36,895 bases of DNA from an uncultured Bacilli bacterium (lineage in GTDB: Bacteria > Bacillota_I > Bacilli_A > RFN20 > CAG-826): positions 1-36,895 of the forward strand of contig CAJOOD010000015.1 in assembly GCA_905236085.1 (NCBI GenBank), given 5' to 3'. Under the pieces are notes generated by a model. That model was given only the letters and a program-made list of their open reading frames with translations, was not told where the DNA came from and ran no database searches. Of this stretch, positions 247 to 20,976 are shown one piece after another. The position numbers and the translations under genes were made by a program. Position 1 is the first letter of the stretch, and each line of letters opens with the position of its first letter.

Positions 247-3195
247 ATGCCTGAACAAAATAGTAAAGTAATTTCTAAATACCAAGGCGAAGCTAATGCT
301 AATAAGAAATTTATTAAGCTTGGTGGAAAAATTACTGACAACGTAGTCACTAAATTACGTGGCGTTAATTCTAATGACCCAGAATATTGGGGACTTAGAG
401 AAGTCCTAACTGAAGAAATGTGTGATATCGGCTTAAAGATGAAATTAAGACATCCATATACAGTCGAAGAACTCATTCAGATGAATAAGGAAGTGGAACC
501 TGCTCATCTACAAGAATTATTAGATCAAATGGCCTACATCGGTATCTTGGAATACGATTATGGTGATGAATATGTCCCATACGACAAGAGAAATGATGAA
601 GAATTTATTAAGAAATTCAACGAAGAAAAGGCCGCAAAACCTAAAGTAAGAAGATATAAATTACCATTCTACGTCCCAGGAAGTGCGGAATTAATGAATT
701 CCTCTATCGGAAGAATTAACAAAAATCCTGCCGTCACCTCTTTCTTTGAAAGAATGACTTTCTTACCACTTGAAAATATCACCTCAATGGTTCCTCCAGG
801 AGGAGATGGTATTGGTATGCACGTCATCCCTGTTCAAGAAGCCGTAGATATGAATAAAGAAACCATCGACCTAGAAAGAATTTCTTACTGGTTAGATAAA
901 TATGATGGACATATTTCTGCAGGTATATGTTCATGCCGTGCTTCTAGAGCGGTGTTAGGTGAAGCTTGTGATGATGATATTGATGATTGGTGTGTCCAAT
1001 TAGGCGATATGGCTGATTACACCGTGGAAACAAAACGTGCTCACTATATCACCAAAGAAGAAGCTCTTCATATCATGAAGAAAGCTGAAGAAAATGGTTA
1101 CGTTCACCAAACCACTAATATCGATGGTGAAAATAAGATTTTCGATATTTGTAACTGTAACGTTAAAATCTGTAATGCTTTAAGAACTGACTTATTATAT
1201 AACACTCCAAATATGGAACGTTCCTCCTTTACCGCTCATGTCGATAAAGAAAAATGTGTCGCTTGTGGTAGATGTGTTGAAGTATGTCCAGCCGGTGCGG
1301 TTAAATTAGGTCAAAAATTATGCTTAGCGGATGGTTCTACACAAGAATATCCACATCAAGTCTTACCAGATAAAATCAGATGGGGCAAATATGCTTGGGA
1401 TGAAAATTATCGTGACACCATTCGTGTTAATACATATCCAAGTGGTACCGCTCCATGTAAGACTGCATGTCCAGCTCATGTACCTGTTCAAGGTTATTTA
1501 AAGATGGCACATGAAGGCCGTTATGAAGAAGCCTTAGCCTTAATTAAACGTGAAAACCCATTCCCAGCCGTTTGTGGTCGTATTTGTAACAAACGTTGTG
1601 AAGCCGCTTGTACTAGAGGTGTTGTTGATGAAGCAGTCTCTATCGATGCAGTTAAGAAATTCTTAGCGGACCGCGAAATCAAGCAAGAACATCGCTATGT
1701 TCCAAAGAAGAGAATAGCAAAAGTTCATGGCGAATTTGAACAAAAGATCGCTATTATTGGTGCTGGTCCTGCTGGCTTATCCGCTGCCTACTATTTAGCG
1801 GAAAGAGGCTTCCATCCAACAGTATTCGAAAAGAATGCTAAAGCTGGTGGCATGATGACATATGGTATTCCAACTTATAAATTAGAAAAAGATGTCATCG
1901 ATGCTGAAATCGAAATCATTAAAGAATTAGGCGCTGAAATTAAATTAGGCGTGGAAGTTGGTAAAGATATCACTATCGCTCAACTTAAAGAACAAGGTTA
2001 TAAGACCTTCTATATCGCTATCGGATGTCAAGGTGGTAGAAGACCTGGTGTTGCTAATGACACCGCCAAAGGAACATCTATCGCTGTTGAATTCTTAAAA
2101 GGCGCTTATGAAAATCAAAATCAAAAATTAGACGGTGATGTCGTAGTTATTGGTGGCGGTAATGTCGCTATCGACTGCGCTAGAACCGCACAAAGATTTA
2201 ATGCCGCATCTGTTTCTATGTTCTGCTTAGAAACTAGAGCTACTATGCCTGCAACTGATGAAGAAGTTAAAGAAGCGGAAGAAGAAGGCATTAAAGTCAA
2301 TCCATCTTGGGGACCAAAAGAAGTTCTTGTTGATGAAAAAGGAAATGTTAAGGGCATCATCTTAAAGAAATGTCTATCCACAATCGATCCAGAAACTGGT
2401 AAATTCTCACCTAAATATGATGAAAATGATACCATCGAAGTCGCTTGTAAACACATCGTCTTTGCTATCGGACAAGCTATTGAATGGGGCCACTTATTAG
2501 ATGGTACTGGTGTAACATTCTGGCACGGAAATTATCCAATCGCTGATAAAGTTACATATCAAACCGCTGATCCAGATATCTTCGTTGGTGGTGATGTCTA
2601 TAGTGGACCAAAATTTGTCATCGACGCTATCGCCGCTGGTCATGAAGCTGCTGAATCATTAATTAGACATGCTACTGAAGCTCATTTGACCATTGGTAGA
2701 GATAAGAGATATTTCTTAGAATTAGATAAGAATAATTTCAGGACTCCAGATGGATATGATGTCTCTGGTAGAAATGAAGTTGGTATGGATGAAACTATTG
2801 ATTATAAGAAATCATTCAAGGATGCTCACTTAACATTCAGCGAAGAACAAGTTAGAAAAGAAACTAATAGATGTCTATCTTGTGGTGCTTCATATGTCGA
2901 TAATAATAGATGTATCGGATGTGGATTATGTACCACTAGATGTGAATTCGACGCTATTCATTTAGTTAGAGATCACCCACAAAATACCAATTACCGTGTA
3001 GCAGAAAAGAAGATTACTGGTTTAGCCGCTTATGCTTTACCAAGAGCCTTCAAGATTTTAGGACATTCCGGTTCTAAAGAAGCCCGTATGATGAGAGCGA
3101 AACGTAAAGCCTTCTTAAAAGCTAGAAAGGCTGATCCAAATAAAGATAATCTCAAACATACAGGTAATGCGGTCGAATTTGTCGATAAGAGATAA
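247..3195 (+). CDS. Multidomain Fe-S flavoprotein oxidoreductase (GltD / glutamate synthase small-subunit-like NAD(P)H core with extra 4Fe-4S domains)
   Basis: Start moved from GTG 223 to ATG 247 (AAGGAGA at 234-240, 6-nt spacing). Motifs: CVACGRCVEVCP; CKTACP...NPFPAVCGRICNKRCEAAC (GltD-type N-terminal Fe-S region); IAIIGAGPAGLSAAYYL and VVVIGGGNVAIDCA (two Rossmann GxGxxG); C-terminal CLSCG...CIGCGLCTTRCEF. The Cys-rich N-terminal ~330 aa is unassigned. Confidence 0.85.
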   Translation: MPEQNSKVISKYQGEANANKKFIKLGGKITDNVVTKLRGVNSNDPEYWGLREVLTEEMCDIGLKMKLRHPYTVEELIQMNKEVEPAHLQELLDQMAYIGILEYDYGDEYVPYDKRNDEEFIKKFNEEKAAKPKVRRYKLPFYVPGSAELMNSSIGRINKNPAVTSFFERMTFLPLENITSMVPPGGDGIGMHVIPVQEAVDMNKETIDLERISYWLDKYDGHISAGICSCRASRAVLGEACDDDIDDWCVQLGDMADYTVETKRAHYITKEEALHIMKKAEENGYVHQTTNIDGENKIFDICNCNVKICNALRTDLLYNTPNMERSSFTAHVDKEKCVACGRCVEVCPAGAVKLGQKLCLADGSTQEYPHQVLPDKIRWGKYAWDENYRDTIRVNTYPSGTAPCKTACPAHVPVQGYLKMAHEGRYEEALALIKRENPFPAVCGRICNKRCEAACTRGVVDEAVSIDAVKKFLADREIKQEHRYVPKKRIAKVHGEFEQKIAIIGAGPAGLSAAYYLAERGFHPTVFEKNAKAGGMMTYGIPTYKLEKDVIDAEIEIIKELGAEIKLGVEVGKDITIAQLKEQGYKTFYIAIGCQGGRRPGVANDTAKGTSIAVEFLKGAYENQNQKLDGDVVVIGGGNVAIDCARTAQRFNAASVSMFCLETRATMPATDEEVKEAEEEGIKVNPSWGPKEVLVDEKGNVKGIILKKCLSTIDPETGKFSPKYDENDTIEVACKHIVFAIGQAIEWGHLLDGTGVTFWHGNYPIADKVTYQTADPDIFVGGDVYSGPKFVIDAIAAGHEAAESLIRHATEAHLTIGRDKRYFLELDKNNFRTPDGYDVSGRNEVGMDETIDYKKSFKDAHLTFSEEQVRKETNRCLSCGASYVDNNRCIGCGLCTTRCEFDAIHLVRDHPQNTNYRVAEKKITGLAAYALPRAFKILGHSGSKEARMMRAKRKAFLKARKADPNKDNLKHTGNAVEFVDKR

Positions 3196-3551
3196 TGCAC
3201 GAATTAGGTATTATATTTCATATCATTGACCAAGTAGAAAAGGTCGCTACTGAAAATAAGGTTAAAAGAGTGGAATCGGTAACCTTAGAAGTAGGCGAAG
3301 TATCCACGATAGTTCCTGACTATTTCAAAGATTGTTGGAAATGGGCCGTGGAAAAGACTGAACATATGCAAGGTGCGAAGTTAGATATGATTATCATTCA
3401 GGCAAAAACGTATTGCCAAGACTGCGAACAAACATATGAAACAGTAAGGTATGGAAAAATCTGCCCTTATTGTCGAAGTGAAAAAACCTATCTATTAACC
3501 GGTAAGGACGTCTCTATTAAAGAGATGGCGGTTGCCGAATACGAAGAATAG
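3195..3551 (+). CDS. hypA: HypA/HybF-family nickel metallochaperone (hydrogenase maturation factor)
   Basis: N-terminal MHE nickel motif (MHELGI...). Zn site CQDC...CPYC. 118 aa. The ATG shares one nt with the upstream TAA (ATAATG). Confidence 0.85.
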   Translation: MHELGIIFHIIDQVEKVATENKVKRVESVTLEVGEVSTIVPDYFKDCWKWAVEKTEHMQGAKLDMIIIQAKTYCQDCEQTYETVRYGKICPYCRSEKTYLLTGKDVSIKEMAVAEYEE

Positions 3552-3563
3552 ATAAATCGAATT

Positions 3564-3596
3564 ACTCTCCATGCGAAATGTGTGGAGAGTTTTTTC
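3564..3596 (+). terminator. Rho-independent terminator after hypA
   Basis: ACTCTCCA (3564-3571) pairs with TGGAGAGT (3583-3590), followed by a T-run. Confidence 0.75.
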
Positions 3597-3607
3597 ATAT
3601 TTTTATC

Positions 3608-3637
3608 TTTACAATTGCACATATAAAGCAATACAAT
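3608..3637 (+). promoter_or_regulatory. Candidate promoter of the six-gene island operon
   Basis: TTTACA (3608-3613), 18-nt spacer, TACAAT (3632-3637). Sits just downstream of the hypA terminator and ~37 nt upstream of ATG 3674. Confidence 0.5.
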
Positions 3638-3660
3638 ATAAGTGCAATAAGAAAAATTGC
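3614..3660. promoter_or_regulatory. Operator-like repeat set ATTGC/GCAAT x4 overlapping the promoter
   Basis: ATTGC 3614-3618, GCAAT 3628-3632, GCAAT 3644-3648, ATTGC 3656-3660. 7-bp inverted repeat ATTGCAC (3614-3620) / GTGCAAT (3642-3648) brackets the -10. Confidence 0.4.
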
Positions 3661-3673
3661 GAGGAGGGAATAT

Positions 3674-3871
3674 ATGGCTAAAACAGTTAATTTCACCGTT
3701 AGAGTGGACGCAGATATCAAGGAAGAAGCCGAAGAATTATTTAAGGACTTAGGTCTTAATCTAACTTCCGCGGTTAATATCTTCTTAAGAGAATGTGTTC
3801 GTCGTAACGGCATTCCGTTTGAAGTAAGCCGCAACGCTGCCAAAGCAAAAATAGAAGAATTAGAAAGATAA
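3674..3871 (+). CDS. RelB/DinJ-family ribbon-helix-helix protein (antitoxin-like, probable operon regulator)
   Basis: Start moved to ATG 3674 (GAGGAGGG at 3661-3668). 65 aa. VNFTVRVDADIKEEAEELFKDLGLNLTSAVNIFLRECVRRNGIPFEV matches the RelB/DinJ pattern. Confidence 0.8.
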   Translation: MAKTVNFTVRVDADIKEEAEELFKDLGLNLTSAVNIFLRECVRRNGIPFEVSRNAAKAKIEELER

Positions 3872-3892
3872 TTAATTTGTGAGGGATTATTT

Positions 3893-5221
3893 ATGATTTT
3901 TAAAAAAGGAGAAAATGTCGTCTTCACTGATTCTAGCAAGGCCACTGTCGTGGAGGAATTAGGAAGCGGCAAACAAGGTGTAGTTTATAAAGTTAAATAT
4001 AATAATGATTTTTATGCTTTAAAAATGTATAAATCTTCATTTCTTAAAAACCTTAAAGCTAGACATAAAGATAAAAAGTTCTATTTAAATCTAGCGGATA
4101 ATGTTTCTAGACAGACTGTTAGTCCAAACTTTATTTGGCCTTTAAGATTAACCGAAACATTTGATGATGGAACTTATGGTTATTTAATGGAATTAATCCC
4201 TGCAAATTATACCTCTTTTATGAAAATCCTTGCAAATCCCAGCAAATTAAAAGCAAATTATTTCTTTTCTATTGTCACCAAGGCATCGATAAATGTCGTT
4301 GATACATTAAGAAAGTTATTCATCAACGGCTTAAGTTTCCAAGACTTCAATGATGGCAGTTTATACATCAATCAAGATAATGGCGATATTAAAATTTGTG
4401 ACTGCGATAACATTGGACCAAATAATAAAGAAGCATTTATCTTAGGTAAATATCAATATATGGCCCCAGAGATTGCTTTAGGTCAAAAATTACCCAATCG
4501 AAGATCAGATCAATTCTCTTTATCGGTTATCTTATTTACCATGTTCTTCTTAACTAGGCCATTTGATGGGAAAGCTTATCGAAGCGAAATACCATCTGAA
4601 TCGGTAAATATCAAATATTTTGGAGAAAATCCGGTTTATATTTGTAATCCAAACGATCATTCTAATGGTCCGGTTAGAGGTATACATCGTGCGTTGATAT
4701 CTTTGTATCCTAAATATCCTGATTATCTTAAGCAAGCATTCTTAAAAGAATATACTCAAGGTTTAAAAAATGAGAACGCTAGACTTCAAGAAGATGAATG
4801 GCTATTTATCTTAACGAGATTAGAAAGCGATATCATCAAATGTCCATATTGTAAGGAAGAGATGTTTGTTAAAGATTTATCTCAAGATGTTTGTCAATGT
4901 GAAGAATGCAAGAAGACCTTTACTAGACCCACAATGCTATATGCGAATGAAAATGAGCATCTATATGGAGAATTTGGAAGGAAATTATACCGTTGGCAAG
5001 TGGACAATTCGCGTTTATTCTCTAATTCATCCTTAGACGTCTTAGGGGAAGTCACAGCCTCTAAAAAGAATCCAAATATTAAAATATTAAAGAATTTATC
5101 AAGAGATACATGGATATTAAATTATCAAGGAGAAGACAAAGAAATCTCTCCTGATAAGAATCTGCCATTAATTCGCGGACAATATGTCACGATTAATAAT
5201 AAAAAATTTACCATAAAATAA
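3893..5221 (+). CDS. Hanks-type Ser/Thr protein kinase with C-terminal Zn ribbon and FHA-like domain
   Basis: Gly loop GSGKQGVVY; YALK (K44); catalytic-loop-like FQDFNDGS; DFG-like CDCD; YMAPE; RSDQFSLSVILF. Zn ribbon CPYC...CQCEEC (aa 317-339). The ~90-aa tail resembles FHA (inference). Confidence 0.8.
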   Translation: MIFKKGENVVFTDSSKATVVEELGSGKQGVVYKVKYNNDFYALKMYKSSFLKNLKARHKDKKFYLNLADNVSRQTVSPNFIWPLRLTETFDDGTYGYLMELIPANYTSFMKILANPSKLKANYFFSIVTKASINVVDTLRKLFINGLSFQDFNDGSLYINQDNGDIKICDCDNIGPNNKEAFILGKYQYMAPEIALGQKLPNRRSDQFSLSVILFTMFFLTRPFDGKAYRSEIPSESVNIKYFGENPVYICNPNDHSNGPVRGIHRALISLYPKYPDYLKQAFLKEYTQGLKNENARLQEDEWLFILTRLESDIIKCPYCKEEMFVKDLSQDVCQCEECKKTFTRPTMLYANENEHLYGEFGRKLYRWQVDNSRLFSNSSLDVLGEVTASKKNPNIKILKNLSRDTWILNYQGEDKEISPDKNLPLIRGQYVTINNKKFTIK

Positions 5222-5233
5222 GGAGCATGAATT

Positions 5234-5974
5234 ATGTTAGTACCAGGTACACAAAAAAGACAATGCCTAATCTATTTAGTCATTGATACATCAGGAAGCA
5301 TGGATGGAACCAAGATTTCTCAGGTTAATTATTCCATACCTCAAGTATTATCAAGTATTCAAGATCTAAATGACTCTAATCCAGAAGCGGAGATAGAAGT
5401 GGCTTTATTAGCCTTTGATAGTCACGCTAGATGGGTAACTAAAAATCCAGAAAAACCAGAAGATTTGAAAAAACACTGGAAAGATTTAACCGCGAATGGA
5501 TTAACCGAATTAGGCGAAGCATGTAATTTCTTAAATGAAAAAATGCATAGAACCAAAAACGGAGGATTTCACGATGATTCCGCAGGTGCTTTAACTGCGG
5601 GTGTTATCTTTATTACTGATGGACTTCCAACTGGTTCATATAAACCAGCCTTAGCTAAATTACAAAAAAATCATTGGTATAAAGATGCTTTTAAATATTG
5701 TTTAGCTTGTGGTGATGATTTAAGCGAAGGAATGTCAGTATTTGAAGAATTAGTGGGTAACAATGAATGTATTCACCTCATTTCTGATGAAAATGCTTGT
5801 CGCTTAGGTGATTATATCCGTGTCGTTACCGCGATTGTGTCTGATTCAGTTTCATCTACTATTCCATTAGGAGAAACTAATAAAGAAGATAATAATCAAG
5901 GAACATTTAATCAAGACGCGGTTGATCAAATTAATGAAGAAGTTAAATCAATCGACGATTTAATTGACGACTAG
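5234..5974 (+). CDS. von Willebrand factor A (vWA) protein, TerY-like
   Basis: MIDAS motif DTSGS (D18/S20/S22), downstream T (GLTELG) and D (FITDGLPT). AAGGAG at 5220-5225. Acidic C-terminal tail. Confidence 0.85.
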   Translation: MLVPGTQKRQCLIYLVIDTSGSMDGTKISQVNYSIPQVLSSIQDLNDSNPEAEIEVALLAFDSHARWVTKNPEKPEDLKKHWKDLTANGLTELGEACNFLNEKMHRTKNGGFHDDSAGALTAGVIFITDGLPTGSYKPALAKLQKNHWYKDAFKYCLACGDDLSEGMSVFEELVGNNECIHLISDENACRLGDYIRVVTAIVSDSVSSTIPLGETNKEDNNQGTFNQDAVDQINEEVKSIDDLIDD

Positions 5975-5984
5975 GAGAAAGAAC

Positions 5985-6923
5985 ATGTTTGTCTCAAAGA
6001 TGTATTTTGTAACCGGTAATGCATCATTTATCGGTGCCTCACATGTTAGAAATAAAACTGTCTGCCAAGATGCATCTATTTCTCTTGTCGAAGAAAGAAC
6101 GAGAAAATACGCTCTATCTGCGGTTAGCGATGGACATGGTTCTAAGAAACATTTTCGTAGCGAATTAGGTTCTAAATTCGCTATTGAATGCGCAAAAGAA
6201 GTCGCTGAGAAAATATCAAGAAATTACCATAAAATTTTAAAAAATCTCAAAAAATATGGGGGATATGACGATAATTTTCTAAATTATATCGCCTCACAAA
6301 TAATCATTTTATGGAACAAAAAATGCATAGAGCATGTTAAAAATCATCCTTATGTTAATGATGAGAAATATCTTTTGTTAACTGATGAAGATAAGGCTTC
6401 TATTAATAAAGATAATGATTATATAAATGGAGACATTAATAATTTAAAAGCTTATGGAGCAACATTTCTCATGTATATCCGTTTTAAGGATTTCTCTTTG
6501 GTTCTGAAATTAGGGGATGGCAATGTCTTATTTATCAAAGATGAGAAAATATATGAAGATGAATCTATCATTGATAACAATTTAAAATTCAATCTAACAT
6601 CTTCATTGTGTTCTGAAGATGCCTTAAAGAAATTTAATTACAAATTCTTCGATAAAGAAAATACTCCAGATGCCGTATTAATTTCTAGCGATGGAATAAT
6701 TAATTCTTTTGAAAACGAGCAATATTTTTATACTTACTGCGCTAAAGTGGTCGATTTATATCTAAAAGAAGATAAGAGTTACGAAGATAAGATTAAGGAA
6801 CTATTAGAATCATTATCATATATCACCGAAACAGGTTCAGGCGATGATTGTTCTATAGCCTTTGTTATCAATAAAGATATCTCTCAATTTATCAAAGAAT
6901 ATCTAGCTAAGAAGGAAAATTAA
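5985..6923 (+). CDS. PP2C-family Ser/Thr protein phosphatase (PP2C_2-like)
   Basis: Start moved from TTG 5964 to ATG 5985 (AGGAGA at 5973-5978). Motifs: GASHVRNKTVCQD, AVSDGHGS, LGDGN, ISSDGI, GSGDDCSIAF. Confidence 0.8.
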   Translation: MFVSKMYFVTGNASFIGASHVRNKTVCQDASISLVEERTRKYALSAVSDGHGSKKHFRSELGSKFAIECAKEVAEKISRNYHKILKNLKKYGGYDDNFLNYIASQIIILWNKKCIEHVKNHPYVNDEKYLLLTDEDKASINKDNDYINGDINNLKAYGATFLMYIRFKDFSLVLKLGDGNVLFIKDEKIYEDESIIDNNLKFNLTSSLCSEDALKKFNYKFFDKENTPDAVLISSDGIINSFENEQYFYTYCAKVVDLYLKEDKSYEDKIKELLESLSYITETGSGDDCSIAFVINKDISQFIKEYLAKKEN

Positions 6924-6924
6924 A

Positions 6925-7875
6925 ATGTTTACCTTTTATTATTCCCAACTGAATTCGATTGAAAAGAAGATATATAACCAATATCTCTCAACTTTAAAAG
7001 AGAAGAAAAATACTTTTATAGTCACAGGGAATATCAAAGAAGAAAATCTTCTTCGAGCAAGAGATGCTTTGTTCTTCGATCATGCTGAAATATATGAACA
7101 AAGTAACGCCATGTCATATATGTTCTTGGGAAATATGTTAAAGGTGGAACTTGATTATTATTTTTCTATTGAAGATATAAAGAAATATGAACAAGAAATA
7201 ATTGCCTCTGTTATTAATAATTTTAAATTCTTAAAGATGTTATCTAGTGATTATGACAAATTAAAATATATTCATGATTATTTCTGCAACCATGTCACTT
7301 ATGATTTAGAAGAAGAAAACGCTTTTAATATCCTTGGACCACTTCTTAAAAATAGAGGTGTTTGTCAAGGGGTGGCTATGTCAGTAAAACTGATATGTGA
7401 TTATTTAAAAATCAAATGTTATATCGCCTATGGAACATTAAAAAAGGATGATGGAGAAGAAGGACATGCCTGGAATGTCGTTAATATCAATGATAATTGG
7501 TATCATTTAGATCTCACAAATGATTTAAATAATTATCAATTCTCTCTTGTATCATATGATTATTTTCTAATCTCCGATAGCGACATTTATAAGACTCATA
7601 CTCCTACAAAAGATTTTAAGATGATGCCGTGTATCGATAATAAACTGAATTATTATTACATGAATCATATCGCTTTTAATTCTTTATCTAAAGCGGTGGA
7701 TTATATAAATAACGCTTTTAAAAGTAGAGATGTTGTTAGGTTTAGATTATTGAGCAATGATGAAAAAGATTATTTTACTAGAATATTTACACGCATCAAA
7801 CTTACATCATATCAATCTATGAAATTAGAATATGTATTTAATAAACATTTAAACACTTACACAGTAAAAATATAA
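6925..7875 (+). CDS. Transglutaminase-like (papain-fold) Cys-His-Asp protein, cytoplasmic
   Basis: RGVCQGVAMSVKLICDYL (C147), EGHAWNVV (H181), WYHLDLT (D196). No signal peptide. The ATG is 1 nt after the PP2C stop. Confidence 0.8.
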   Translation: MFTFYYSQLNSIEKKIYNQYLSTLKEKKNTFIVTGNIKEENLLRARDALFFDHAEIYEQSNAMSYMFLGNMLKVELDYYFSIEDIKKYEQEIIASVINNFKFLKMLSSDYDKLKYIHDYFCNHVTYDLEEENAFNILGPLLKNRGVCQGVAMSVKLICDYLKIKCYIAYGTLKKDDGEEGHAWNVVNINDNWYHLDLTNDLNNYQFSLVSYDYFLISDSDIYKTHTPTKDFKMMPCIDNKLNYYYMNHIAFNSLSKAVDYINNAFKSRDVVRFRLLSNDEKDYFTRIFTRIKLTSYQSMKLEYVFNKHLNTYTVKI

Positions 7876-7884
7876 GGAAAGACA

Positions 7885-10800
7885 ATGGGAAATTTATTTA
7901 AGAGATTATCATCCAATTTATTAGATTTAGGCTTAAGAAATAAATTATTAAATTTCAAAGAGCAAAAGCTTAGATTTATTAAAATAATCGATCCTAATAT
8001 CGATAATATTTTCTCATGGATTACCTCTAATAAAGCTTTATATTTTAAAGTCTCACAATTAGAGATAAATGAAGATCCTAATCATGATTATAGTCAAACT
8101 TATCTAGCAAATTATCATGAGAAATTAAATAAATACGATATCAGCGCCTATAAGAAGCATGAGAAATTATTATATATCTTAAAGAATCTAAAGAAATTTA
8201 ATGATTCTGCTTTATTAGAAAGAGGAATTAATATCTTATATCTCGCTTTAAATTTTATGGTTTGGGAGGATATTGATAATCCAAAAACCCCTCTAAAGTC
8301 CCCTCTTTTATTAATTCCTGTTAATTTATCCTACGATAAGAATCTACAAAAATATTATTTAAGAATGGTCTCAGACGAGGTGATAGTCAACCCAGTTTTA
8401 AAAGCTAAATTACAATTATCATATTCTCTTGATTTACCTGAATATGATAATGATAAAGATGATAATATCTCATATATCAATAAAATTAATCGCATAATTA
8501 AAATGAAAAACTGGAGTCTTTTAAATGAGATATATTTAGGTGTATTCTCATTTGAAAAATTAACCATGTATCAAGACTTAAAAGAAAATGAAAATAAGAT
8601 GGAATCATCTTCTTTAATAAGAGCCTTATATAACGGAGAAAGTGGGATAATATTTAATAATGAATTTAATGGAAAAGATTTCTTTAAAAATTCTTTAGAT
8701 GTTACCTCTTTACACAATGTAGTCGATGCTGATTCATCACAACTAGAAGCTATAGCCAAAGCCAAAAATGGTGATTCTTTTGTCATTCAAGGCCCTCCAG
8801 GAACTGGGAAATCACAAACTATTACTAATATTATTTCTGAGATGATATATCAAGGAAAAAGAGTATTGTTCGTATCAGAAAAACTCGCCGCTTTAAATAT
8901 TGTTTATAGTAATTTAAAAAAAGCCAAATTAGATGACTTTATCATGAAAATTCATAGCGATAAGGAGAATAAAAAGAATTTTGTTTATGAATTATATCGC
9001 TCATATAAAGCTGCGAAATATATTTCTTCAAATAGAGAAAAGAAATTAGAAGCTTTATTAACTAATAAGGAAGAATTAGATAATTATGATAAAGCTATAC
9101 ATAGATATATCCCTAAATTAGAGATGGATGTTTATTCCTTAATATCTAAGATGTATGAATCGAAAATTCATCTTGATAATTATGAAGATAAAAAATTATT
9201 ATCTTTAACTAATAATGATTTAAAGGCGCGTCTTGATGCTTTACATAATTTTGCTAATTATCCCACTAAGGTTAGAGATGATTATTGGAATTATGCATGG
9301 TATGGTTTTAAAGGCGATAAGCATAATACCTTATTTGAAGATAATATCATTATCAAGATTAAGGAATATTATTATTTTGTTAATACTTTAAAATTCTTCA
9401 AAGACAAGATTAATACATTTTTAGATATTGATTTATCTACCTATAATAAAATTGATAAGAGTCTTGAGTTATTAAAAACCATTAAAAAAATGCCATTTAT
9501 AGCTAAGGATATTTACCGCAAGGAAAGGCTCAATTTCTATAAAAAAACCTTAGAAATAATATATTTTCACTTAAAAAGATGCTTAGAAACCAGAGCCCAT
9601 ATCGAAAGCCTTTATTATGATGATATCTATTTATTAGACATCGAAAGATTAAATAATGATTTTCATAATAAATATAAAACTCATTTCCGTTTCTTTAATT
9701 CATCTTATCGCAAAGACATGAAAATGATTAAGATGTCTCTTAGAAACAAAGACAACAAATTAAATTATGAATCCGTGAAAGATTTAATTTCTAAGGTCTA
9801 TTTATTCTTGAGTGATAAATGTGTATTAGATCTAGCTTATCAAGATTTAGATTTCTTAAAAGATAATAATCTCAACTTTGAAAAATACTCCTTAGAGGAG
9901 ATTAAACGTGTATTAGATCTATTAACTGATATATCTAATAATTATGACGCTGATATTAATTATTTAGAAAAATATGATTATTCGCATTATCAAGAATTAA
10001 ATAAATATATTGATATCATACTTAACACTATGAATGATAAAGATAAGCATGAAAGACTTTATAATTATTTTGAAGTGTCAATTATTAATTTCAAAAATGG
10101 CTTAATAGATGAAGTAGTTCCTTATGTTTATAATTTAATCAAACATGAAGGTGAAGTTGATGATTACTCTAGATTCTATTTATACATGCAAGAATTTGAA
10201 AAATTAGGCATCTTAGATTTTTATAAAACTGCGATTAATAACGGAGTCAAGAAAAGTGAATTATTAGATGCTTTTTCCTATATCTTTTATAAGGAACATT
10301 TTAAAAATATCTATCTAACCAGCGCCGATTTGCGGGGTTTTGATGATGATAAACTGAATAATATCCATGAAGCATATAAGAAATTAGATACGGAATTATT
10401 CGATTTAAATCAAAAAGAAATCAAGGCGGAATTGTTTAAAAAAGTCTTAGATAAATCTAATAAAAATGAGGCTTCTAATCGCGCTATAATTAAGGAATTC
10501 TCTTTAATTGAACATGAAGCCAATAAGAAAAGACAGATAAAACCGATTAGAACATTATTTAAAGAAGCTTCTAATGCGATTAGATATATTAAGCCTTGTT
10601 TATTGATGTCACCTTTAAGTGTTGCAACTTATTTAGAATACGACGAGAATTTATTTGATGTTCTCATCTTTGATGAAGCTTCACAAATTTTCCCTTGGGA
10701 CGCTATTGGATCCATTGCAAGAAGCAAACAAATAATTGTCTCTGGCGACTCTAAGCAAATGCCACCATCTAATTTCTTCCAGACATCTAATATTGTTTAT

Positions 10801-12804
10801 GACGATGAATATTTAGACGAGGAAGAAGAAAATATAAATGATTATGAATCGATATTAGATTTAGCCACCGCAGTCTTACCTGATTCATCTTTAAATTGGC
10901 ATTATAGAAGTAGAAATGAATCATTGATCACTTTTTCTAATCATCATTTCTACGATGATAAATTAATCACTTTTCCATCATCTTTAATAAATAATTCCGA
11001 TTTTGGCTTGGATTTTGAATATGTTAGTAACGGAACATTTATAAATAGAATTAATTATGAAGAAGGCTTAAAAGTAGTGGATATGATTTATGAGCATTAT
11101 AAAAATCATCCCGAAAGATCTCTAGGAGTGGTGGCCTTTTCTATTTCCCAACAGCAATTAATCGAGGACTTATTGGACGTAAAAAGGAAGATAGATGATC
11201 GCTATGCTCCATATTTTAATCAGGAAATAAAAGAGCCTTTCTTTATTAAGAATTTAGAAACTGTGCAAGGGGATGAAAGGGATACCATAATATTTTCTAT
11301 TGGCTACGCTAAAGATAATAATGGAATATTAAAACACAATTTCGGTCCATTGAATAGAAAAGGCGGAGAAAGAAGATTAAATGTCGCTATTACAAGAGCG
11401 AAATATAATGTTAAAGTTGTTTCTTCGATTCGTGGGATGGATATAGATTTATCTAAAACAAATTCTTTAGGAGCCTCTTTATTAAAATCATATTTAGAAG
11501 CTGCAGAAAAGGGTGTTAACATTACCTCTAGTATGACTAGAGAAAATAACATAACTTTTGCCTTAGAAGAAGATATTAAAAAATATATTAAATCTTTAAA
11601 TTATGATGTTGATACTAAGGTTGGATATTCTGATTATCGTATCGATTTATGTGTCAAACATCCAAAATACAATAATTATGTTTTAGCTATTGAATGTGAT
11701 GGTGAAAATTATCACAAAAATAAGAATACAAGAGATAGAGAGCGACTAAGAGAAAACATCTTAGGAAGATTAGGATGGAAATATCATCGCATTTATTCCT
11801 TAGATTGGCTTTTAAATAACAATATAGCCAAAGCAAAATTAGTAAGCATCATCAATAGAGCTATCAATGATTATGATGATTTAATCGCTCAAATGAATCC
11901 TGTTAAAGTTATCAGTAATAATGTGGTGAATTATAATGATGGTGATAATCTTTTCTATGACGAATTAACATATAAAGAAAGATATCTTATCGATCAATTA
12001 AATGATGATATTAATAATCTAAATTATCGATTCATTAGATATAATAACACTGATAATTATGGCTATTGTTATGAGCAAGATATCAATAATAAAATAAATG
12101 ATTATTGGTTCTATTTCTCGAAAAATAATGGCGATTTGCTATTTAATTACATATTAAATCCTGGCGCAAATAGGATTAAATATGAAGGAATTAAAGTGGA
12201 TTTAGATGATACAAAGAGCATTTCTTACACCATTAAAAGTTTAATTAAAGATAGATTTGGTTTTAAAATCAATAAGAATAGAATAAGCATTAAAAATACG
12301 AGTGTCTTACCTAATCTATCATTAAAATTGTATGAGAATATAGTTAAGGAAATCAAAGGTATACCATATAACGCCGAATATAAGCAAAACAAGGTTATTA
12401 AGGATGTTGTTAACTATTTGTATGATGACATTATTAATTATGCGATATCTAGAAGATTATTTAAGAGTAAAGATGATTTCTATAAAAACAAAAATACGAA
12501 AATAGTATCTTATAATTTCCATGGAATTATCTTTGATTTTGATAATTTAAACCCCTCAATTGCCAAAACCATATACGACTATTATAAAGCTAACGCTTTG
12601 ATTAACGTGGTGAGACATTATGAGAATATGTTTTCTGAAACCATCATTATCAATCAAAAAGTGGTAATGGAAGATTTTAAAAACCTTATCGCTATTAATG
12701 ATGTTAATTTCTCTAGAGCTTCGGGCATGAATGATAATTTCCAAGATGTTCCTAATTTGCTATTAATCGACAAACTTAAATCATTTATTCCAGTAGAAAA
12801 TTAA
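7885..12804 (+). CDS. DUF4011 / Upf1-like SF1 helicase fused to a Vsr/DUF559-like endonuclease, plus an unassigned ~330-aa C-terminus (Hhe-like)
   Basis: N-terminal LLDLGLRNKLLNF (DUF4011-type). Walker A GPPGTGKS (aa 303-310). LIFDEASQ (aa 927-934), VSGDSKQMPP, WHYRS, TVQGDERDTIIFS, RRLNVAITRAK. Nuclease YRIDL...LAIECDGENYH...RDRERLRENILGRLGW (aa ~1250-1300). Confidence 0.85.
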   Translation: MGNLFKRLSSNLLDLGLRNKLLNFKEQKLRFIKIIDPNIDNIFSWITSNKALYFKVSQLEINEDPNHDYSQTYLANYHEKLNKYDISAYKKHEKLLYILKNLKKFNDSALLERGINILYLALNFMVWEDIDNPKTPLKSPLLLIPVNLSYDKNLQKYYLRMVSDEVIVNPVLKAKLQLSYSLDLPEYDNDKDDNISYINKINRIIKMKNWSLLNEIYLGVFSFEKLTMYQDLKENENKMESSSLIRALYNGESGIIFNNEFNGKDFFKNSLDVTSLHNVVDADSSQLEAIAKAKNGDSFVIQGPPGTGKSQTITNIISEMIYQGKRVLFVSEKLAALNIVYSNLKKAKLDDFIMKIHSDKENKKNFVYELYRSYKAAKYISSNREKKLEALLTNKEELDNYDKAIHRYIPKLEMDVYSLISKMYESKIHLDNYEDKKLLSLTNNDLKARLDALHNFANYPTKVRDDYWNYAWYGFKGDKHNTLFEDNIIIKIKEYYYFVNTLKFFKDKINTFLDIDLSTYNKIDKSLELLKTIKKMPFIAKDIYRKERLNFYKKTLEIIYFHLKRCLETRAHIESLYYDDIYLLDIERLNNDFHNKYKTHFRFFNSSYRKDMKMIKMSLRNKDNKLNYESVKDLISKVYLFLSDKCVLDLAYQDLDFLKDNNLNFEKYSLEEIKRVLDLLTDISNNYDADINYLEKYDYSHYQELNKYIDIILNTMNDKDKHERLYNYFEVSIINFKNGLIDEVVPYVYNLIKHEGEVDDYSRFYLYMQEFEKLGILDFYKTAINNGVKKSELLDAFSYIFYKEHFKNIYLTSADLRGFDDDKLNNIHEAYKKLDTELFDLNQKEIKAELFKKVLDKSNKNEASNRAIIKEFSLIEHEANKKRQIKPIRTLFKEASNAIRYIKPCLLMSPLSVATYLEYDENLFDVLIFDEASQIFPWDAIGSIARSKQIIVSGDSKQMPPSNFFQTSNIVYDDEYLDEEEENINDYESILDLATAVLPDSSLNWHYRSRNESLITFSNHHFYDDKLITFPSSLINNSDFGLDFEYVSNGTFINRINYEEGLKVVDMIYEHYKNHPERSLGVVAFSISQQQLIEDLLDVKRKIDDRYAPYFNQEIKEPFFIKNLETVQGDERDTIIFSIGYAKDNNGILKHNFGPLNRKGGERRLNVAITRAKYNVKVVSSIRGMDIDLSKTNSLGASLLKSYLEAAEKGVNITSSMTRENNITFALEEDIKKYIKSLNYDVDTKVGYSDYRIDLCVKHPKYNNYVLAIECDGENYHKNKNTRDRERLRENILGRLGWKYHRIYSLDWLLNNNIAKAKLVSIINRAINDYDDLIAQMNPVKVISNNVVNYNDGDNLFYDELTYKERYLIDQLNDDINNLNYRFIRYNNTDNYGYCYEQDINNKINDYWFYFSKNNGDLLFNYILNPGANRIKYEGIKVDLDDTKSISYTIKSLIKDRFGFKINKNRISIKNTSVLPNLSLKLYENIVKEIKGIPYNAEYKQNKVIKDVVNYLYDDIINYAISRRLFKSKDDFYKNKNTKIVSYNFHGIIFDFDNLNPSIAKTIYDYYKANALINVVRHYENMFSETIIINQKVVMEDFKNLIAINDVNFSRASGMNDNFQDVPNLLLIDKLKSFIPVEN

Positions 12805-12864
12805 GCATATTACTTTATTAAAAGTAGTCTCTAGGTTATACTATACTAACTTAGGAGGTTAATT

Positions 12865-14202
12865 ATGCTTAACAAAACAAATGTAGAATTAGAAAGATTA
12901 GAAAAACTAAATAAAAAATATCTTAAGGATGATAAAAATACTGTCCTACGTCATGCTTTAAGCAACGCTGCTTATAGCGATGTCTTGCATGTCTTAGAAG
13001 AAGAAAACAATATTGAACAAAAATTCTCTATTGAAAATAAAGTATTACCTATCACCAACCAAAAACAATCAGGAAGATGCTGGATTTTTGCGGCCTTAAA
13101 TGTCTTAAGAGAGATAGTGGCCAAAGAATTAAAATTAACCGATTTTGAATTATCACAAAACTATATTGCTTTTTATGACAAATTAGAAAAAGTTAATTAT
13201 GCGCTTAATAGTGTGATTGAATTAATTGATAAAGAGCACGATGATCGAGAATTGATGTTTGTTCTTCAAACCGGTATTAATGATGGTGGACAATGGGATA
13301 TGTTTACTAACATCGTTAGAAAATATGGCATTGTTCCAAAGCAAGCTTTTAAAGAAACTTGGGCCTCATCTCATACTAGAGAAATTGATTCTTTATTAAA
13401 TTCTGTGGTAAGAAAATTTGCCGCGGACGTCCACAAATTATATGTCGATAATAAGACGGACGAAATCAATAAATTAAAAGACGAAATCATGGATAAAGTT
13501 TATACCTTGATGTGTTCATCTTTTGGGGTTCCTCCAAAGAAATTTAATTTTGATTATGTGGATAAAGACGGAAAATATCACGTTTTAAACAATCAAACTC
13601 CTTTAGGATTCTTTAATAAATTTGTTGGCGATAAGATTAATGATTATGTTTCTATTATTCACGCTCCAACAAAAGATAAAGAATATGGTAAGAGATATAC
13701 CATTCGCTTATTAGGCAATGTTGAAGAAGGACATAAAGTTATTCACCTTAATTTGCCGATGGAAAGAATTAAAGAATTATGTATTAAAACCTTAGAAAAC
13801 GGCGAATTAGTGTGGTTTGGTAGCGATGTAGGTTTCTATGGTAACCGTACCTTAGGTGCTTGGGATGATAAATTATTTGACTACGAATCCGCATTTGGAC
13901 TAGATTTAAAATTCGACAAGGCTGATATGCTAGATTATCATGCTTCCGCGATGAACCACGCTATGGTTATTGTTGGTGTTAATGTTCAAAAAGGCCAAGA
14001 AAATAAATGGAAAATTCAAAATTCTTGGGGTGTTGATTCTGGTGAAAAGGGTTTCTATGTCATGTCTAATAGTTGGTTTGATAGATTTGTTTATCAAGCT
14101 GTCATTGATAAGAAATATCTTTCTAGTGAAGAATTAAAAGCTTTAGAAGCTGAACCAATCGTGGTTCCTCCATGGGATCCAATGGGCACTCTCGCGGATT
14201 AA
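12865..14202 (+). CDS. pepC: Aminopeptidase C (C1B bleomycin-hydrolase family cysteine peptidase)
   Basis: NQKQSGRCWIFAALNVLR active-site Cys context. HAMVIVGV and NSWG motifs. 445 aa. AGGAGG upstream. Confidence 0.9.
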   Translation: MLNKTNVELERLEKLNKKYLKDDKNTVLRHALSNAAYSDVLHVLEEENNIEQKFSIENKVLPITNQKQSGRCWIFAALNVLREIVAKELKLTDFELSQNYIAFYDKLEKVNYALNSVIELIDKEHDDRELMFVLQTGINDGGQWDMFTNIVRKYGIVPKQAFKETWASSHTREIDSLLNSVVRKFAADVHKLYVDNKTDEINKLKDEIMDKVYTLMCSSFGVPPKKFNFDYVDKDGKYHVLNNQTPLGFFNKFVGDKINDYVSIIHAPTKDKEYGKRYTIRLLGNVEEGHKVIHLNLPMERIKELCIKTLENGELVWFGSDVGFYGNRTLGAWDDKLFDYESAFGLDLKFDKADMLDYHASAMNHAMVIVGVNVQKGQENKWKIQNSWGVDSGEKGFYVMSNSWFDRFVYQAVIDKKYLSSEELKALEAEPIVVPPWDPMGTLAD

Positions 14203-14225
14203 TGTTTGCATCGATTATTAAAATA

Positions 14226-14252
14226 AAAATATAGGCTCAGCCTATATTTTTT
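14226..14252. terminator. Bidirectional rho-independent terminator (pepC / TetR gene)
   Basis: 11-bp stem AAAATATAGGC / GCCTATATTTT with loop TCA. T-runs on both strands. The TetR stop codon lies in the loop. Confidence 0.75.
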
Positions 14253-14785
14253 ATTAATGATAATGAATAATCTTTTATTTCATCAAGTGACAATTTAGAT
14301 TTTTTCCCAAAATAATCTAGATATAAAGATGTTATTCCGGAAATTAAGATAATTATATGAGTTTCTTTCTCTTTATTTATATTTGGATTAACAATAGTAA
14401 TCTTATCAACATCTTGATATAAATTCTTTTTAAAACTGGTGTATATGAGATGTGGACTATTTTTAACCACTTTGGAAATAAATTCTTCATTTTTCTTCAT
14501 CTCTTCATTGAAATTTAATAAGAAAGTTTCTAAAGCATTTTCTTCTAATTTAGCGGAATCCCAGATATCCGCTACAGTTTTAATGACATCGTTTTCTATA
14601 TCTTTAGCAACATCCATCACATTATTATAGTGTCGATAAAATGTGGTTCTAGAAACTTTAGATAGCTCTGCTAATTCAGTTATAGATATATCTGTTATTT
14701 TTTCATTATTTGCTAAGAGGCTTAATAAATTTTCTTTTATAGCCAGTTTAGACCTAATCGCTGTTTTGTTTTCTTTTTTGCTCAT
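14237..14785 (-). CDS. TetR/AcrR-family transcriptional regulator
   Basis: N-terminal HTH ISITELAELSKVSRTTFYRHYNNV. 182 aa. Divergent from tldD. Confidence 0.85.
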   Translation of the reverse strand: MSKKENKTAIRSKLAIKENLLSLLANNEKITDISITELAELSKVSRTTFYRHYNNVMDVAKDIENDVIKTVADIWDSAKLEENALETFLLNFNEEMKKNEEFISKVVKNSPHLIYTSFKKNLYQDVDKITIVNPNINKEKETHIIILISGITSLYLDYFGKKSKLSLDEIKDYSLSLIKNIG

Positions 14786-14952
14786 TTTTCTAATCCTTGC
14801 TATTTATTGTAGATAAATGCTCAAAAAGTGCAACAAAAAAAGAATTTCGACTTTTTAAAACTTAAAATTAGTAAGTTCTATACAAATAAAATGCAATTAT
14901 CTTTTTTATTTACACTTTTACATTTATAATATTAAAAAACATAGGAGGTATT

Positions 14953-16356
14953 ATGGGATTTTCTAAATATTTAGATTCTAAAAGAAAACTATTAAAAGAA
15001 TTAGTTTTAGAATTAAGAAAAGAATATAAATACGTATCTATTTTAGGCAGTGATTCTAAATCATTAAGAATATCCGCGGATAAAAGAACTTCTAATATTA
15101 CTGATGGAAGTGATAATGATGTTGGATTTGTTATCAAGATGAGTAATGGTAGAGGCTTCTTTGAATATTCCTTGGATGATATTGATGGTGATATGAAAGC
15201 ACTAGCTAAAAAGATATTAGATTCATTATCAATCAATGATGAATTAAAAGATAAAATGATTGTTTCAAGAGAAATCAAAGATGAAGAATTTAAAAAAGAT
15301 TTCTTGAGAGAAAACGATTTTGATCAATACAGTGCAAAAGATTTATTAAAATCTGTTATTGAAGTTAAAGATCTATTATTAAAAGAAGAACCAAATTTAT
15401 TAAATGCAACAGCGGTAATAATGACACAAAATATCAATAAAATATTTGTTACCGAGCATAAAGAAATGTCTCAGCATTATACATGGGCTAATGGCATAGT
15501 TTTTGTCTATTATTCTGAAGGTGAGAAGATGGTTTCCGCAAGAGATGTCGTCTATTCCAACCAATTAAAGGACATCATCAATGACTTGCCAACTAAGGTA
15601 AAACCCGTAATCGAAAAGGCAAAACATTTAGTCCACGCAAAAGCGATAGTTCCGGGTGTCTATGATGTCATTACTGATTCTAGTATTACCGGCCTTATTG
15701 CTCATGAAGCATTTGGTCATGGATTAGAGATGGACCAATTTGTTAAAGATAGAGCCGTAGCAAAAGATTATATGGGAAAATATGTAGCTTCTAATATAAC
15801 TTCTATGAAAGATGGGGCAGCATCTACTTTCTCTGTGGCTTCTTACTTCTTTGATGATGATGGTGTTTTGGCGCAAGATACTCAACTTATTAAAGATGGT
15901 ATCTTGGTAGGCGGAATGTGTGATTTAGTTTCTGCTTCGCAATTAAATGCTCACGCAACTGGAAATGGAAGAAGACAAGCTCATGACCACAAAGCTTATA
16001 CAAGAATGACCAACACCTTTATTGAAAAAGGAAATGATAAATTAGAAGATATGATTAAATCCATAAAGCATGGATATATGCTGTTTGAGACTAATAATGG
16101 CATGGAAGATCCTAAGAATTGGGCCATACAATGTGTTTGCGAATATGGAATTGAAATTATCGATGGTAAATTAACTGATAATTATGTCTCTCCAGTCGTG
16201 ATGTCAGGCTATGTTCCAGATTTATTAAAGTCGATATCGATGATTTCTGATGATTTTAAGATTATTGGCTCTGGTAGCTGTGGAAAAGGCTATAAGGAAT
16301 GGGTCCATGTTTCCGATGGCGGACCTTGTTTAAAAGCGAGGGTGAAATTATCATGA
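14953..16356 (+). CDS. tldD: TldD-family metalloprotease
   Basis: HEAFGHGLE (HExxxH) and FFDDDGVLAQDTQLIKDG motifs. 467 aa. GGAGG upstream. Confidence 0.85.
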   Translation: MGFSKYLDSKRKLLKELVLELRKEYKYVSILGSDSKSLRISADKRTSNITDGSDNDVGFVIKMSNGRGFFEYSLDDIDGDMKALAKKILDSLSINDELKDKMIVSREIKDEEFKKDFLRENDFDQYSAKDLLKSVIEVKDLLLKEEPNLLNATAVIMTQNINKIFVTEHKEMSQHYTWANGIVFVYYSEGEKMVSARDVVYSNQLKDIINDLPTKVKPVIEKAKHLVHAKAIVPGVYDVITDSSITGLIAHEAFGHGLEMDQFVKDRAVAKDYMGKYVASNITSMKDGAASTFSVASYFFDDDGVLAQDTQLIKDGILVGGMCDLVSASQLNAHATGNGRRQAHDHKAYTRMTNTFIEKGNDKLEDMIKSIKHGYMLFETNNGMEDPKNWAIQCVCEYGIEIIDGKLTDNYVSPVVMSGYVPDLLKSISMISDDFKIIGSGSCGKGYKEWVHVSDGGPCLKARVKLS

Positions 16357-20391: not shown

Positions 20392-20976
20392 ATGGATGTT
20401 GTTATAGCGAAGAAGAAGGAATTTAAAATCATCGAAAAATTAGGTGATAGATCATATAAAGTCAAAAGAAAAAATAAAGAATATTTTCTTAAAAAAATTG
20501 GTCTAGAAAACGATGAATTTGATAAGTGGATTAAAGATTATAAATTCTTAAAAACCGCGGGAATTAATATGCCTAAAATGCGCATAATTGATAAAAAAGA
20601 AGGGATTTTTGTCGAGGATTTTATTCCAGGCGAGACTGTTTTTGATGTTTTATTATGGAGAGATTTAGAAAACGATTATTTCCGTAATGTCTTTGTTAAT
20701 GAATTCTATGAAAAGCAAGATAATTTCTCTTTGAATTATGAGCCTATTAATTGGAAATTATATAACGGAAAATTATATTATCTCTTGCATGAATATAAAA
20801 GAGGCTTCAAAGAAGAAACGTCCTTTACTAAAAGAGGTATATATTATTGGTTCTATACCAAGGAATTCGCAGATTATGCTCTTAATAGAGGAAAGAAGAA
20901 AGACCTTTCTAGACTTAAAAATGAATATGAAACCAATAGAGAAATATTAAAGACTGTTGTACAATTTCATATCTAA
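20392..20976 (+). CDS. Hypothetical protein (194 aa), coupled to the metalloprotease gene
   Basis: Intact ORF 4 nt after the upstream stop, with AAGGA upstream. No secure motif. Confidence 0.6.
   Translation: MDVVIAKKKEFKIIEKLGDRSYKVKRKNKEYFLKKIGLENDEFDKWIKDYKFLKTAGINMPKMRIIDKKEGIFVEDFIPGETVFDVLLWRDLENDYFRNVFVNEFYEKQDNFSLNYEPINWKLYNGKLYYLLHEYKRGFKEETSFTKRGIYYWFYTKEFADYALNRGKKKDLSRLKNEYETNREILKTVVQFHI

Follow-up and report, generated by a model that had tools for sequence, protein, structure and literature searches.

A six-gene cluster between hypA and pepC, in a 36,895-nucleotide (nt) stretch of DNA from an uncultured Bacilli bacterium (contig CAJOOD010000015.1 of assembly GCA_905236085.1; the whole stretch analyzed is called the window below), is read here as an anti-phage (conflict) operon composed of separable modules, in which a phospho-switch would control a transglutaminase-like (TGL) enzyme, a helicase-nuclease, or both. 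The probability of this reading is estimated at about 0.42. The cluster encodes, in order, a ribbon-helix-helix (RHH) protein, a serine/threonine kinase, a vWA (von Willebrand factor type A) protein, a PP2C-type phosphatase, a TGL enzyme, and a large helicase-nuclease. The anatomy of the cluster, the domain identities of its products, the intactness of their catalytic residues, and the recurrence of its modules in other genomes were observed directly, and from them we infer a defense role in the source organism. Every component, as well as the theme of TerY-P triads attached to helicase/nuclease systems, is already present in the literature. Within the literature searched, three combinations appear to be new, namely, a triad with a DUF4011/Vsr helicase-nuclease, a recurrent four-gene unit of triad plus TGL gene, and a "split ProA-like" arrangement. 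The TGL gene is the most informative part of the locus.

Organization of the putative operon and its control region

All six open reading frames (ORFs) lie on the forward strand (Table 1) and are separated by gaps of 21, 12, 10, 1, and 9 nt in order from the RHH gene to the helicase gene. A purine run resembling a Shine-Dalgarno (SD) sequence was found upstream of all six start codons. The ORF positions and these purine runs confirmed the coordinates, gaps, and individual SDs that had been given in an earlier note made from the sequence alone. The RHH ORF opens mechanically at position 3578, and the ATG at 3674, which carries the SD GAGGAGGG, is the preferred start; the PP2C ORF has an alternative TTG start at 5964. 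The same note had described a lone upstream promoter-like site behind the hypA terminator and no internal terminator, which also agrees with the analysis. The terminator-like hairpin closes the upstream hypA unit, the best forward-strand promoter-like match follows it, and zero forward-strand terminator-like sites were detected between 3591 and 13520, with the next one located at 13521. We infer that the six genes are co-transcribed from one promoter. The inverted repeat that brackets the -10 hexamer of this promoter-like site may serve the RHH protein as an operator, and a 7-nt repeat of this kind may also occur by chance.

The RHH protein scored above the cut-off of the RelB/DinJ antitoxin model TIGR02384, as expected for the antitoxin of a type II RelBE toxin-antitoxin system. 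No RelE/YafQ-type toxin gene was found next to it, and the gene 21 nt downstream is that of the kinase. The RHH protein is probably an autoregulator that represses the operon. An antisense ORF at 3595 to 3972 was rejected as a gene on account of its overlap with the RHH gene and for want of any support. Composition gave no evidence of recent horizontal transfer, as the cluster and its flanks have equal G+C contents at third codon positions (GC3). The neighbors of the operon are hypA upstream and pepC (Peptidase_C1_2) downstream.

Table 1. Features of the six-gene cluster and its control region (window coordinates)
Feature	Coordinates	Strand	Basis
Terminator-like hairpin	3564..3590	+	12-pair stem followed by a T-run; closes the upstream hypA unit
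Promoter-like site TTTACA-18-TACAAT, candidate operon promoter	3608..3637	+	Best forward-strand match, 10/12; consensus match only
Inverted repeat ATTGCAC-N21-GTGCAAT, candidate RHH operator	3614..3648		Brackets the -10 hexamer
RelB/DinJ-family RHH protein, 65 amino acids (aa)	3674..3871	+	Pfam RelB 5.6e-7; TIGR02384 61.3 bits, cut-off 45.65
Serine/threonine kinase: kinase domain at aa 19-231, C-terminal zinc ribbon (Zn-ribbon) and forkhead-associated (FHA)-like beta-sandwich	3893..5221	+	Pfam Pkinase 2e-14
Kinase C-terminal region: Zn-ribbon (C317, C320, C336, C339) and FHA-like domain	4790..5221	+	Structure model, Foldseek
Stand-alone vWA protein with metal ion-dependent adhesion site (MIDAS) motif DTSGS; TerY-like place in triad	5234..5974	+	Pfam VWA 4e-8, VWA_2; motif read in translation
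PP2C-type serine/threonine phosphatase	5985..6923	+	Pfam PP2C_2 3.5e-28; DGHG/GDG/DG/DD readable in translation
TGL thiol enzyme, Cys147-His181-Asp196 triad	6925..7875	+	Transglut_core 3.5e-9
DUF4011 / superfamily 1 (SF1, Upf1-like) helicase / Vsr-like REase_MTES_1575 nuclease, 1639 aa	7885..12804	+	Pfam DUF4011 + AAA_11 + AAA_12 + MTES_1575
Vsr-like restriction-endonuclease-fold domain (MTES_1575), helicase aa 1228-1321	11566..11847	+	Pfam 5.9e-28
C-terminal domain of about 300 aa, helicase aa 1340-1639	11902..12804	+	No Pfam match; common only to subfamily P0014-P0027

Kinase-vWA-PP2C triad

The domain and motif calls previously made for all six proteins held, with a Pfam match to each one and with catalytic residues that are either conserved in alignments or readable in the translations. 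In an alignment of 27 kinase homologues, K44, D151, D170/D172/N173, the APE motif, and the four Zn-ribbon cysteines are invariant. The C-terminal 143 residues of the kinase were modeled as a Zn-ribbon followed by a beta-sandwich, with a pLDDT (predicted local distance difference test) score of 92. In a Foldseek search of this model against the PDB, FHA domains accounted for all but one of the first 36 matches, which were weak in E value (0.017 to 0.5), reached probabilities of up to 1.0, and were consistent with each other. A zinc ribbon, together with a domain rich in beta-strands, has been noted for such kinases (PMC7159879), with which the window kinase agrees. The vWA call rests on Pfam VWA and VWA_2 and not on a TerY-specific model. 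The phosphatase gene begins 10 nt behind the vWA gene in the same operon, so that the locus has a stand-alone MIDAS vWA protein, an operonic PP2C, and a kinase with a C-terminal Zn-ribbon, which are all of the features of the classic TerY-P triad. Judged by these features, the trio belongs to the classic form of the TerY-P triad, which is defined in PMC11090510 and has a Zn-ribbon kinase.

The earlier note had also equated the trio with Gao_TerY, and only the assignment to the triad type could be retained. Against PADLOC-DB v2, which we take to include TerY-P models, the vWA and PP2C proteins gave no match even at an E value of ≤10, and the kinase matched only the abortive-infection kinase models mad6 and PD-T4-6, weakly. 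The kinase of the Gao type of TerY-P carries a C-terminal oligonucleotide/oligosaccharide-binding (OB) fold (PMC11090510). Because PADLOC matches are absent and the kinase tail is Zn-ribbon/FHA-like and not an OB fold, the window triad is not of the Gao/PADLOC type.

When species-representative genomes were scanned with the kinase alignment, at least 541 relatives emerged, and the best 80 loci were analyzed. These loci belong to Clostridia, Treponema, Bacteroidales, Synergistaceae, and one metagenome-assembled genome labelled "Candidatus Bathycorpusculum". In about 65 of the 80 loci, the kinase gene is followed by that of a vWA homologue, the gene order kinase-vWA-PP2C is found in about 65, and small TerY_C-domain proteins (PF15616) adjoin the triad in about 14.

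Two of the arrangements found in this survey are described here in their own right. In Ruminococcus/Oscillospiraceae, the triad is located inside a syntenic block (many loci among L030 to L085, e.g., L055 and L067, at about 7000 to 15000) with the order GGDEF, periplasmic-binding protein, Zn-ribbon/BspA-leucine-rich repeat (LRR) protein, kinase-vWA-PP2C, a protein of about 380 aa, and a 175-aa protein. The protein of about 380 aa, present in 23 loci, had no Pfam or PADLOC match. In L087, which has a related triad (38% identity), a gene for an AbiGi-domain protein (2643-3371) precedes the kinase gene by 25 nt, in the slot held by the RelB-like RHH gene in the window, which suggests that antitoxin-like regulators are interchangeable at this position.

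Helicase-nuclease

The Walker A motif GPPGTGKS (K309), the DEASQ motif, and the nuclease residues D1254, E1270, D1272, and H1277 are invariant in an alignment of 15 helicase homologues. More than 7,755 matches were obtained for this very large family. The best model was PADLOC PDC-S37 (1160 bits), which aligned residues 5-1333 with profile positions 10-1348 of 1550; PDC-S37 has no curated cut-off, and such a near full-length match was taken as the criterion for assignment. NCBIfam NF058533, "anti-phage protein ProA", scored 1074 bits against a cut-off of 1500 and was matched only over profile positions 361-1710 of 1903. With the NCBIfam Hhe model the score was 759 bits (cut-off, 2000), and the PADLOC Hhe model scored 527 bits over the C-terminal half only. 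No HEPN family was found among the Pfam matches of the helicase, in which DUF4011 begins at residue 11; Hhe reportedly has an N-terminal HEPN domain. By these profile comparisons, the helicase is classified as a PDC-S37-type relative of Hhe and ProA that falls below the NCBIfam cut-offs for both. The previous statement that it corresponds to Hhe is therefore right as to relationship and wrong as to identity, given the low Hhe score and the missing HEPN domain, and PDC-S37 is the better match. No paper describing ProA, PDC-S37, or Streptococcus pyogenes TglA (PDB 9crn) was found in the literature, so their functions are given by database name only.

The C-terminal 300 aa of the window helicase replace the DUF3320/winged helix-turn-helix tail of most family members, and 100% query coverage in the helicase homologue search was obtained only in subfamily P0014-P0027. 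The closest helicase subfamily, with 37 to 42% identity, shares these 300 aa. A single-sequence metagenome scan with the C-terminal domain gave no matches. All five of the closest-subfamily helicases that were examined in context lie inside defense islands with restriction-modification (RM), NERD, HNH, and Schlafen-like genes, 34 to 55 nt downstream of HNH or type I HsdR genes. In three loci (L003, 9100-14968; L170, 765-6707; L171, 1299-7241), an HNH-domain protein of about 290 aa is encoded 34 nt upstream of the helicase, and this upstream slot is taken by a type I HsdR gene in L004 and L172. The helicase may habitually be appended to the 3' ends of other defense operons. A broader helicase survey comprised 83 loci, 80 from a metagenome scan with the full-length alignment and three obtained earlier, and sampled the whole DUF4011 family.

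Transglutaminase-like gene

The catalytic residues C147, H181, and D196 of the TGL enzyme are invariant in an alignment of 22 homologues. Its structure model has a pLDDT of 76.6, and the nearest solved structure is that of S. pyogenes TglA. The earlier note had held that this enzyme belongs to neither of the known systems, a view that the surveys do not support. Nine of the 80 triad loci, spread over two phyla (Firmicutes and one Bacteroidales genome), have a homologous TGL gene linked to the triad, immediately 3' of PP2C in L008, L009, L048, L052, and L066, and a distant TGL-like domain is present at the N termini of true ProA and MTES_1575-type proteins. On this distribution, the TGL enzyme is assigned as a recurrent accessory of the triad family.

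Fusions of a transglutaminase-like peptidase with an SF-I helicase and an MTES_1575 Vsr-like nuclease in giant proteins have been described (PMC3710099). In 10 of the 83 helicase loci, the helicase begins with a domain of about 380 aa that shows the pattern G-x-C-x-D ... G-H-A-F-x-G-x-W-L. Four of these 10 were scanned against NCBIfam, and all were true ProA, with 2022 to 2238 bits over profile positions 1-1903. Since true ProA proteins carry this TGL-like N-terminal domain, the N-terminal part of ProA that is absent from the window helicase is the transglutaminase-like domain. In the window, a separate TGL gene ends 9 nt upstream of the helicase gene.

Association of the triad with helicases

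Only three further assemblies contained the identical six-gene locus between hypA and pepC; these assemblies have an identical kinase and probably represent the same organism. Helicases of other kinds are linked to the triad elsewhere. A DpdF/PsyrT (RecQ-like) superfamily 2 (SF2) helicase is encoded in the triad operon in L006, L007, L008, L009, and L011, directly after PP2C in L006, L007, and L011. The order in L008 and L009 is triad-TGL-PIF1-like helicase(s)-SF2 helicase, a layout like that of the window, and L050 has a UvrD-like helicase. TerY-P triads have been reported embedded in operons with Upf1-like helicases and nucleases (PMC11090510) and together with modules for DNA processing (PMC4978471, citing Anantharaman 2012), and the recurrent triad-helicase linkage in the survey matches this published association. 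The six-gene arrangement had been put forward as one not known as a described unit, and no matching described unit was found in the literature searched.

Locus L121 (56-18470) contains seven same-strand genes in the order SMC/SbcC-like, PD-(D/E)XK + SF1 helicase (MkoA/DpdJ-like), metallophosphoesterase, DUF4011 helicase-nuclease, vWA, PP2C, and kinase. Its triad belongs to the same family as that of the window, its helicase lacks the window's C-terminal domain, and its gene order differs. Because this helicase falls outside the window's subfamily, L121 looks like an independent juxtaposition.

Comparison with named systems

The classic TerY-P triad, associated with CoCoNuT types II and III-A (Anantharaman 2012; Bell et al. 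2024, PMC11090510), resembles the window in its adjacent vWA, PP2C, and Zn-ribbon kinase genes, in the TerY_C proteins found beside related triads, and in its association with an SF1 Upf1-like helicase and a nuclease. The window differs in its order kinase-vWA-PP2C and in the added RHH and TGL genes, and its helicase is of the DUF4011/Vsr type, whereas that of CoCoNuT is CnuH. None of the McrB/McrC, CnuE/HEPN, and coiled-coil components of CoCoNuT types II and III-A was found in the window operon. The TerY-P system of Gao et al. 2020, as modeled in DefenseFinder and PADLOC, has the same three enzyme classes and presumably the same phospho-switch logic; it differs in its OB-fold kinase, in place of which the window kinase has the Zn-ribbon and FHA-like region, and in that the window vWA and PP2C proteins lack PADLOC matches.

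Compared with ProA (NF058533) and the MTES_1575 giants (PMC3710099), the window shares the helicase core, and its TGL and helicase genes together have the domain content of ProA. However, the window helicase lacks the fused N-terminal TGL-like domain and the C-terminal part of ProA and has its own C-terminal 300 aa, and the separate TGL enzyme comes from a distant branch of the superfamily. PDC-S37 is similar over nearly its full length and is likewise a helicase-nuclease form without a transglutaminase-like domain. Hhe (Gao et al. 2020) also combines DUF4011, an SF1 helicase, and a Vsr-like nuclease, but only its C-terminal half aligns well and the window helicase has no HEPN domain. Type I Mokosh (MkoA + MkoB) joins a serine/threonine kinase function and a COG1112-type SF1 helicase in one locus. 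In the window, by contrast, the kinase is a separate gene, and the MkoA match is partial (97.7 bits, residues 917-1194, in the C-terminal half of the helicase); no gene for the phospholipase D (PLD)-nuclease partner of type I Mokosh was found in the window operon.

Proposed mechanism

In the proposed operon, the RelB-like RHH protein would repress transcription. The first module would be a TerY-P-type phospho-switch consisting of the kinase with its Zn-ribbon and FHA-like region, the MIDAS vWA protein, and PP2C, which would reset the switch; the catalytically intact TGL enzyme follows this triad. The second module, the DUF4011/SF1/Vsr-like helicase-nuclease, would translocate on and cut invading DNA. 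Infection may be sensed through the Zn-ribbon/FHA-like region of the kinase or through the vWA protein, and phosphorylation, opposed by PP2C, would then control the TGL enzyme, the helicase-nuclease, or both. The TGL enzyme may provide the thiol-peptidase or transglutaminase activity that is fused N-terminally in true ProA, so that TGL and helicase would form a "split ProA-like" effector under phospho-control. Functional coupling of the switch to the TGL enzyme and/or the helicase, as suggested by gene arrangement and domain content, is tentative, with odds somewhat short of even. A fully integrated three-step cascade, in which an RHH-repressed switch senses infection and activates or releases the TGL enzyme, which in turn licenses the ProA-like helicase-nuclease, is unlikely. 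If it were true, the triad and TGL genes would constitute a portable regulatory cassette for helicase effectors.

The locus bears on what TerY-P-type triads sense and phosphorylate and on why they are attached to helicase/nuclease defense systems. It raises two questions, namely, whether phosphorylation gates a nuclease effector and what role is played by a transglutaminase-like activity that recurs beside the triad family and is fused to the helicase family. Because it is compact, with six genes, readable catalytic residues, and a triad directly upstream of TGL and helicase-nuclease genes, the locus is a convenient test bed.

Alternative explanations

A number of observations weigh against a single anti-phage operon. 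No DUF4011 helicase was found in the 80 triad loci, the triad was found in 1 of the 83 helicase loci (L121 only), and kinase, vWA, PP2C, and transglutaminase-like genes are missing from the neighborhoods of all five closest helicase relatives. The earlier note had proposed that the modules never co-occurring elsewhere would speak against a composite system; this is nearly the case for the triad and the DUF4011 helicase and is not the case for the triad with the TGL gene or with other helicases. The modules are also separable, since L048 and L076 have a triad and a TGL gene with no helicase after them, and the RHH gene has no homologue in any of the 80 related triad loci. The tight gap before the helicase gene is weak evidence of partnership because the helicase subfamily is normally found 34 to 55 nt behind unrelated defense genes, and PDC-S37 is by name a single-gene candidate, whereas the window helicase is the last of six genes. 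The argument for a single operon is further weakened because the helicase-pepC junction also lacks a terminator and promoter-like matches are at shuffle level (64, against 70.9 in shuffled sequence), with no enrichment in this AT-rich DNA. The closest relatives of the window TGL enzyme (30 to 34% identity) are stand-alone Lachnospiraceae genes without triad or helicase and therefore give no support for a conserved six-gene unit; a rough neighbor-joining tree likewise placed it among these genes and not in the triad-linked clade. The possibility that the window TGL enzyme is a detached ProA N-terminal domain was rejected, as a hidden Markov model (HMM) of that domain matched none of the window proteins and hhalign, in which the catalytic Cys and His were aligned, gave an E value of 0.0018 and a probability of 15%. 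Given the negative HMM search, the marginal profile comparison, and the grouping with stand-alone TGL enzymes, the link between TGL and ProA is interpreted as recurring domain content and not orthology. Triad partners elsewhere are very heterogeneous, including Zn-ribbon/LRR, ankyrin/PIN, Hsp70, histidine kinase, coiled-coil/OmpA, and FGE-sulfatase-like proteins as well as helicases, and when 66 representatives of the downstream partners were pooled and compared with Pfam, no dominant effector emerged. The Ruminococcus/Oscillospiraceae triad block looks like a core signaling locus and not a mobile defense island.

Many of these observations fit two autonomous systems in a mini defense island, that is, an RHH-regulated triad with a TGL output and a single-gene PDC-S37/ProA-like helicase that share a transcript by accident. 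This explanation, which the earlier note had in essence named as its alternative, is a serious one, though not probable enough to be expected, and two independent systems and functional coupling are considered about equally likely. In addition to the co-occurrence counts and the lack of orthology between the window TGL enzyme and the TGL-like domain of ProA, it accords with the many different neighbors of the helicase family. On the other hand, the helicase gene follows without a terminator or convincing promoter in the 9-nt gap, L121 also juxtaposes the same triad and helicase families, other helicases have been recruited by the triad family time and again, helicase/nuclease systems are documented to carry TerY-P triads as add-ons (PMC11090510), and the combination of transglutaminase and helicase recurs as the ProA fusion. 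If the modules prove independent, the locus is an ordinary small defense island. A role that is not primarily anti-phage, with the triad in housekeeping or stress signaling (metal or envelope, as proposed for Ter) and the helicase-nuclease in DNA repair or plasmid control, is improbable. It would account for the triad block, in which GGDEF, periplasmic-binding, and LRR proteins occur without an obvious effector, for partners such as Hsp70, histidine kinases, and the FGE-sulfatase-like protein, and for a cluster whose GC3 equals that of its flanks with no integrase nearby; moreover, the conserved core genes of Pseudomonas aeruginosa include a DUF4011 gene (PMC10250203). However, the best models for the helicase are defense models and its closest relatives lie among RM, NERD, HNH, and Schlafen-like genes, other triad partners include PIN proteins and DpdF/PsyrT-like and PIF1-like helicases, an AbiGi-like protein is encoded upstream of the kinase in L087, and anti-phage activity of a TerY-P system was shown by Gao 2020, as related in PMC11090510 and PMC7699616. 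Least probable is that the RHH protein and kinase form a toxin-antitoxin-like pair in which the kinase is a growth-arresting toxin and the other genes are modifiers. The RHH protein passes the RelB/DinJ model and its gene immediately precedes that of the kinase, at the place in which a toxin gene is expected, the AbiGi-type antitoxin-like protein holds the same position in L087, and the kinase has its weak matches to PD-T4-6 and mad6. Yet the RHH gene does not accompany the kinase family in the other loci, the conserved partner that would reverse the kinase is PP2C and not an antitoxin, and there is no RelE-like gene.

Other features of the window

Several features outside the cluster were recorded, all on the forward strand where a strand is given. 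The ribosomal protein L23 gene (25887-26669, forward strand) encodes a 260-aa fusion of two DUF1508 (YegP-like) domains, a Lys/Ala-rich linker, and L23, and the product of the neighboring L22 gene (27862-28365) is likewise extended, by about 60 Lys/Glu-rich aa at its N terminus. A putative lipoprotein metalloprotease with an HExxH motif and weak M6/M10 matches is encoded at 18864-20387 (forward strand). Between it and tgt lies a gene (20392-20976, forward strand) for a 194-aa protein with no Pfam match.

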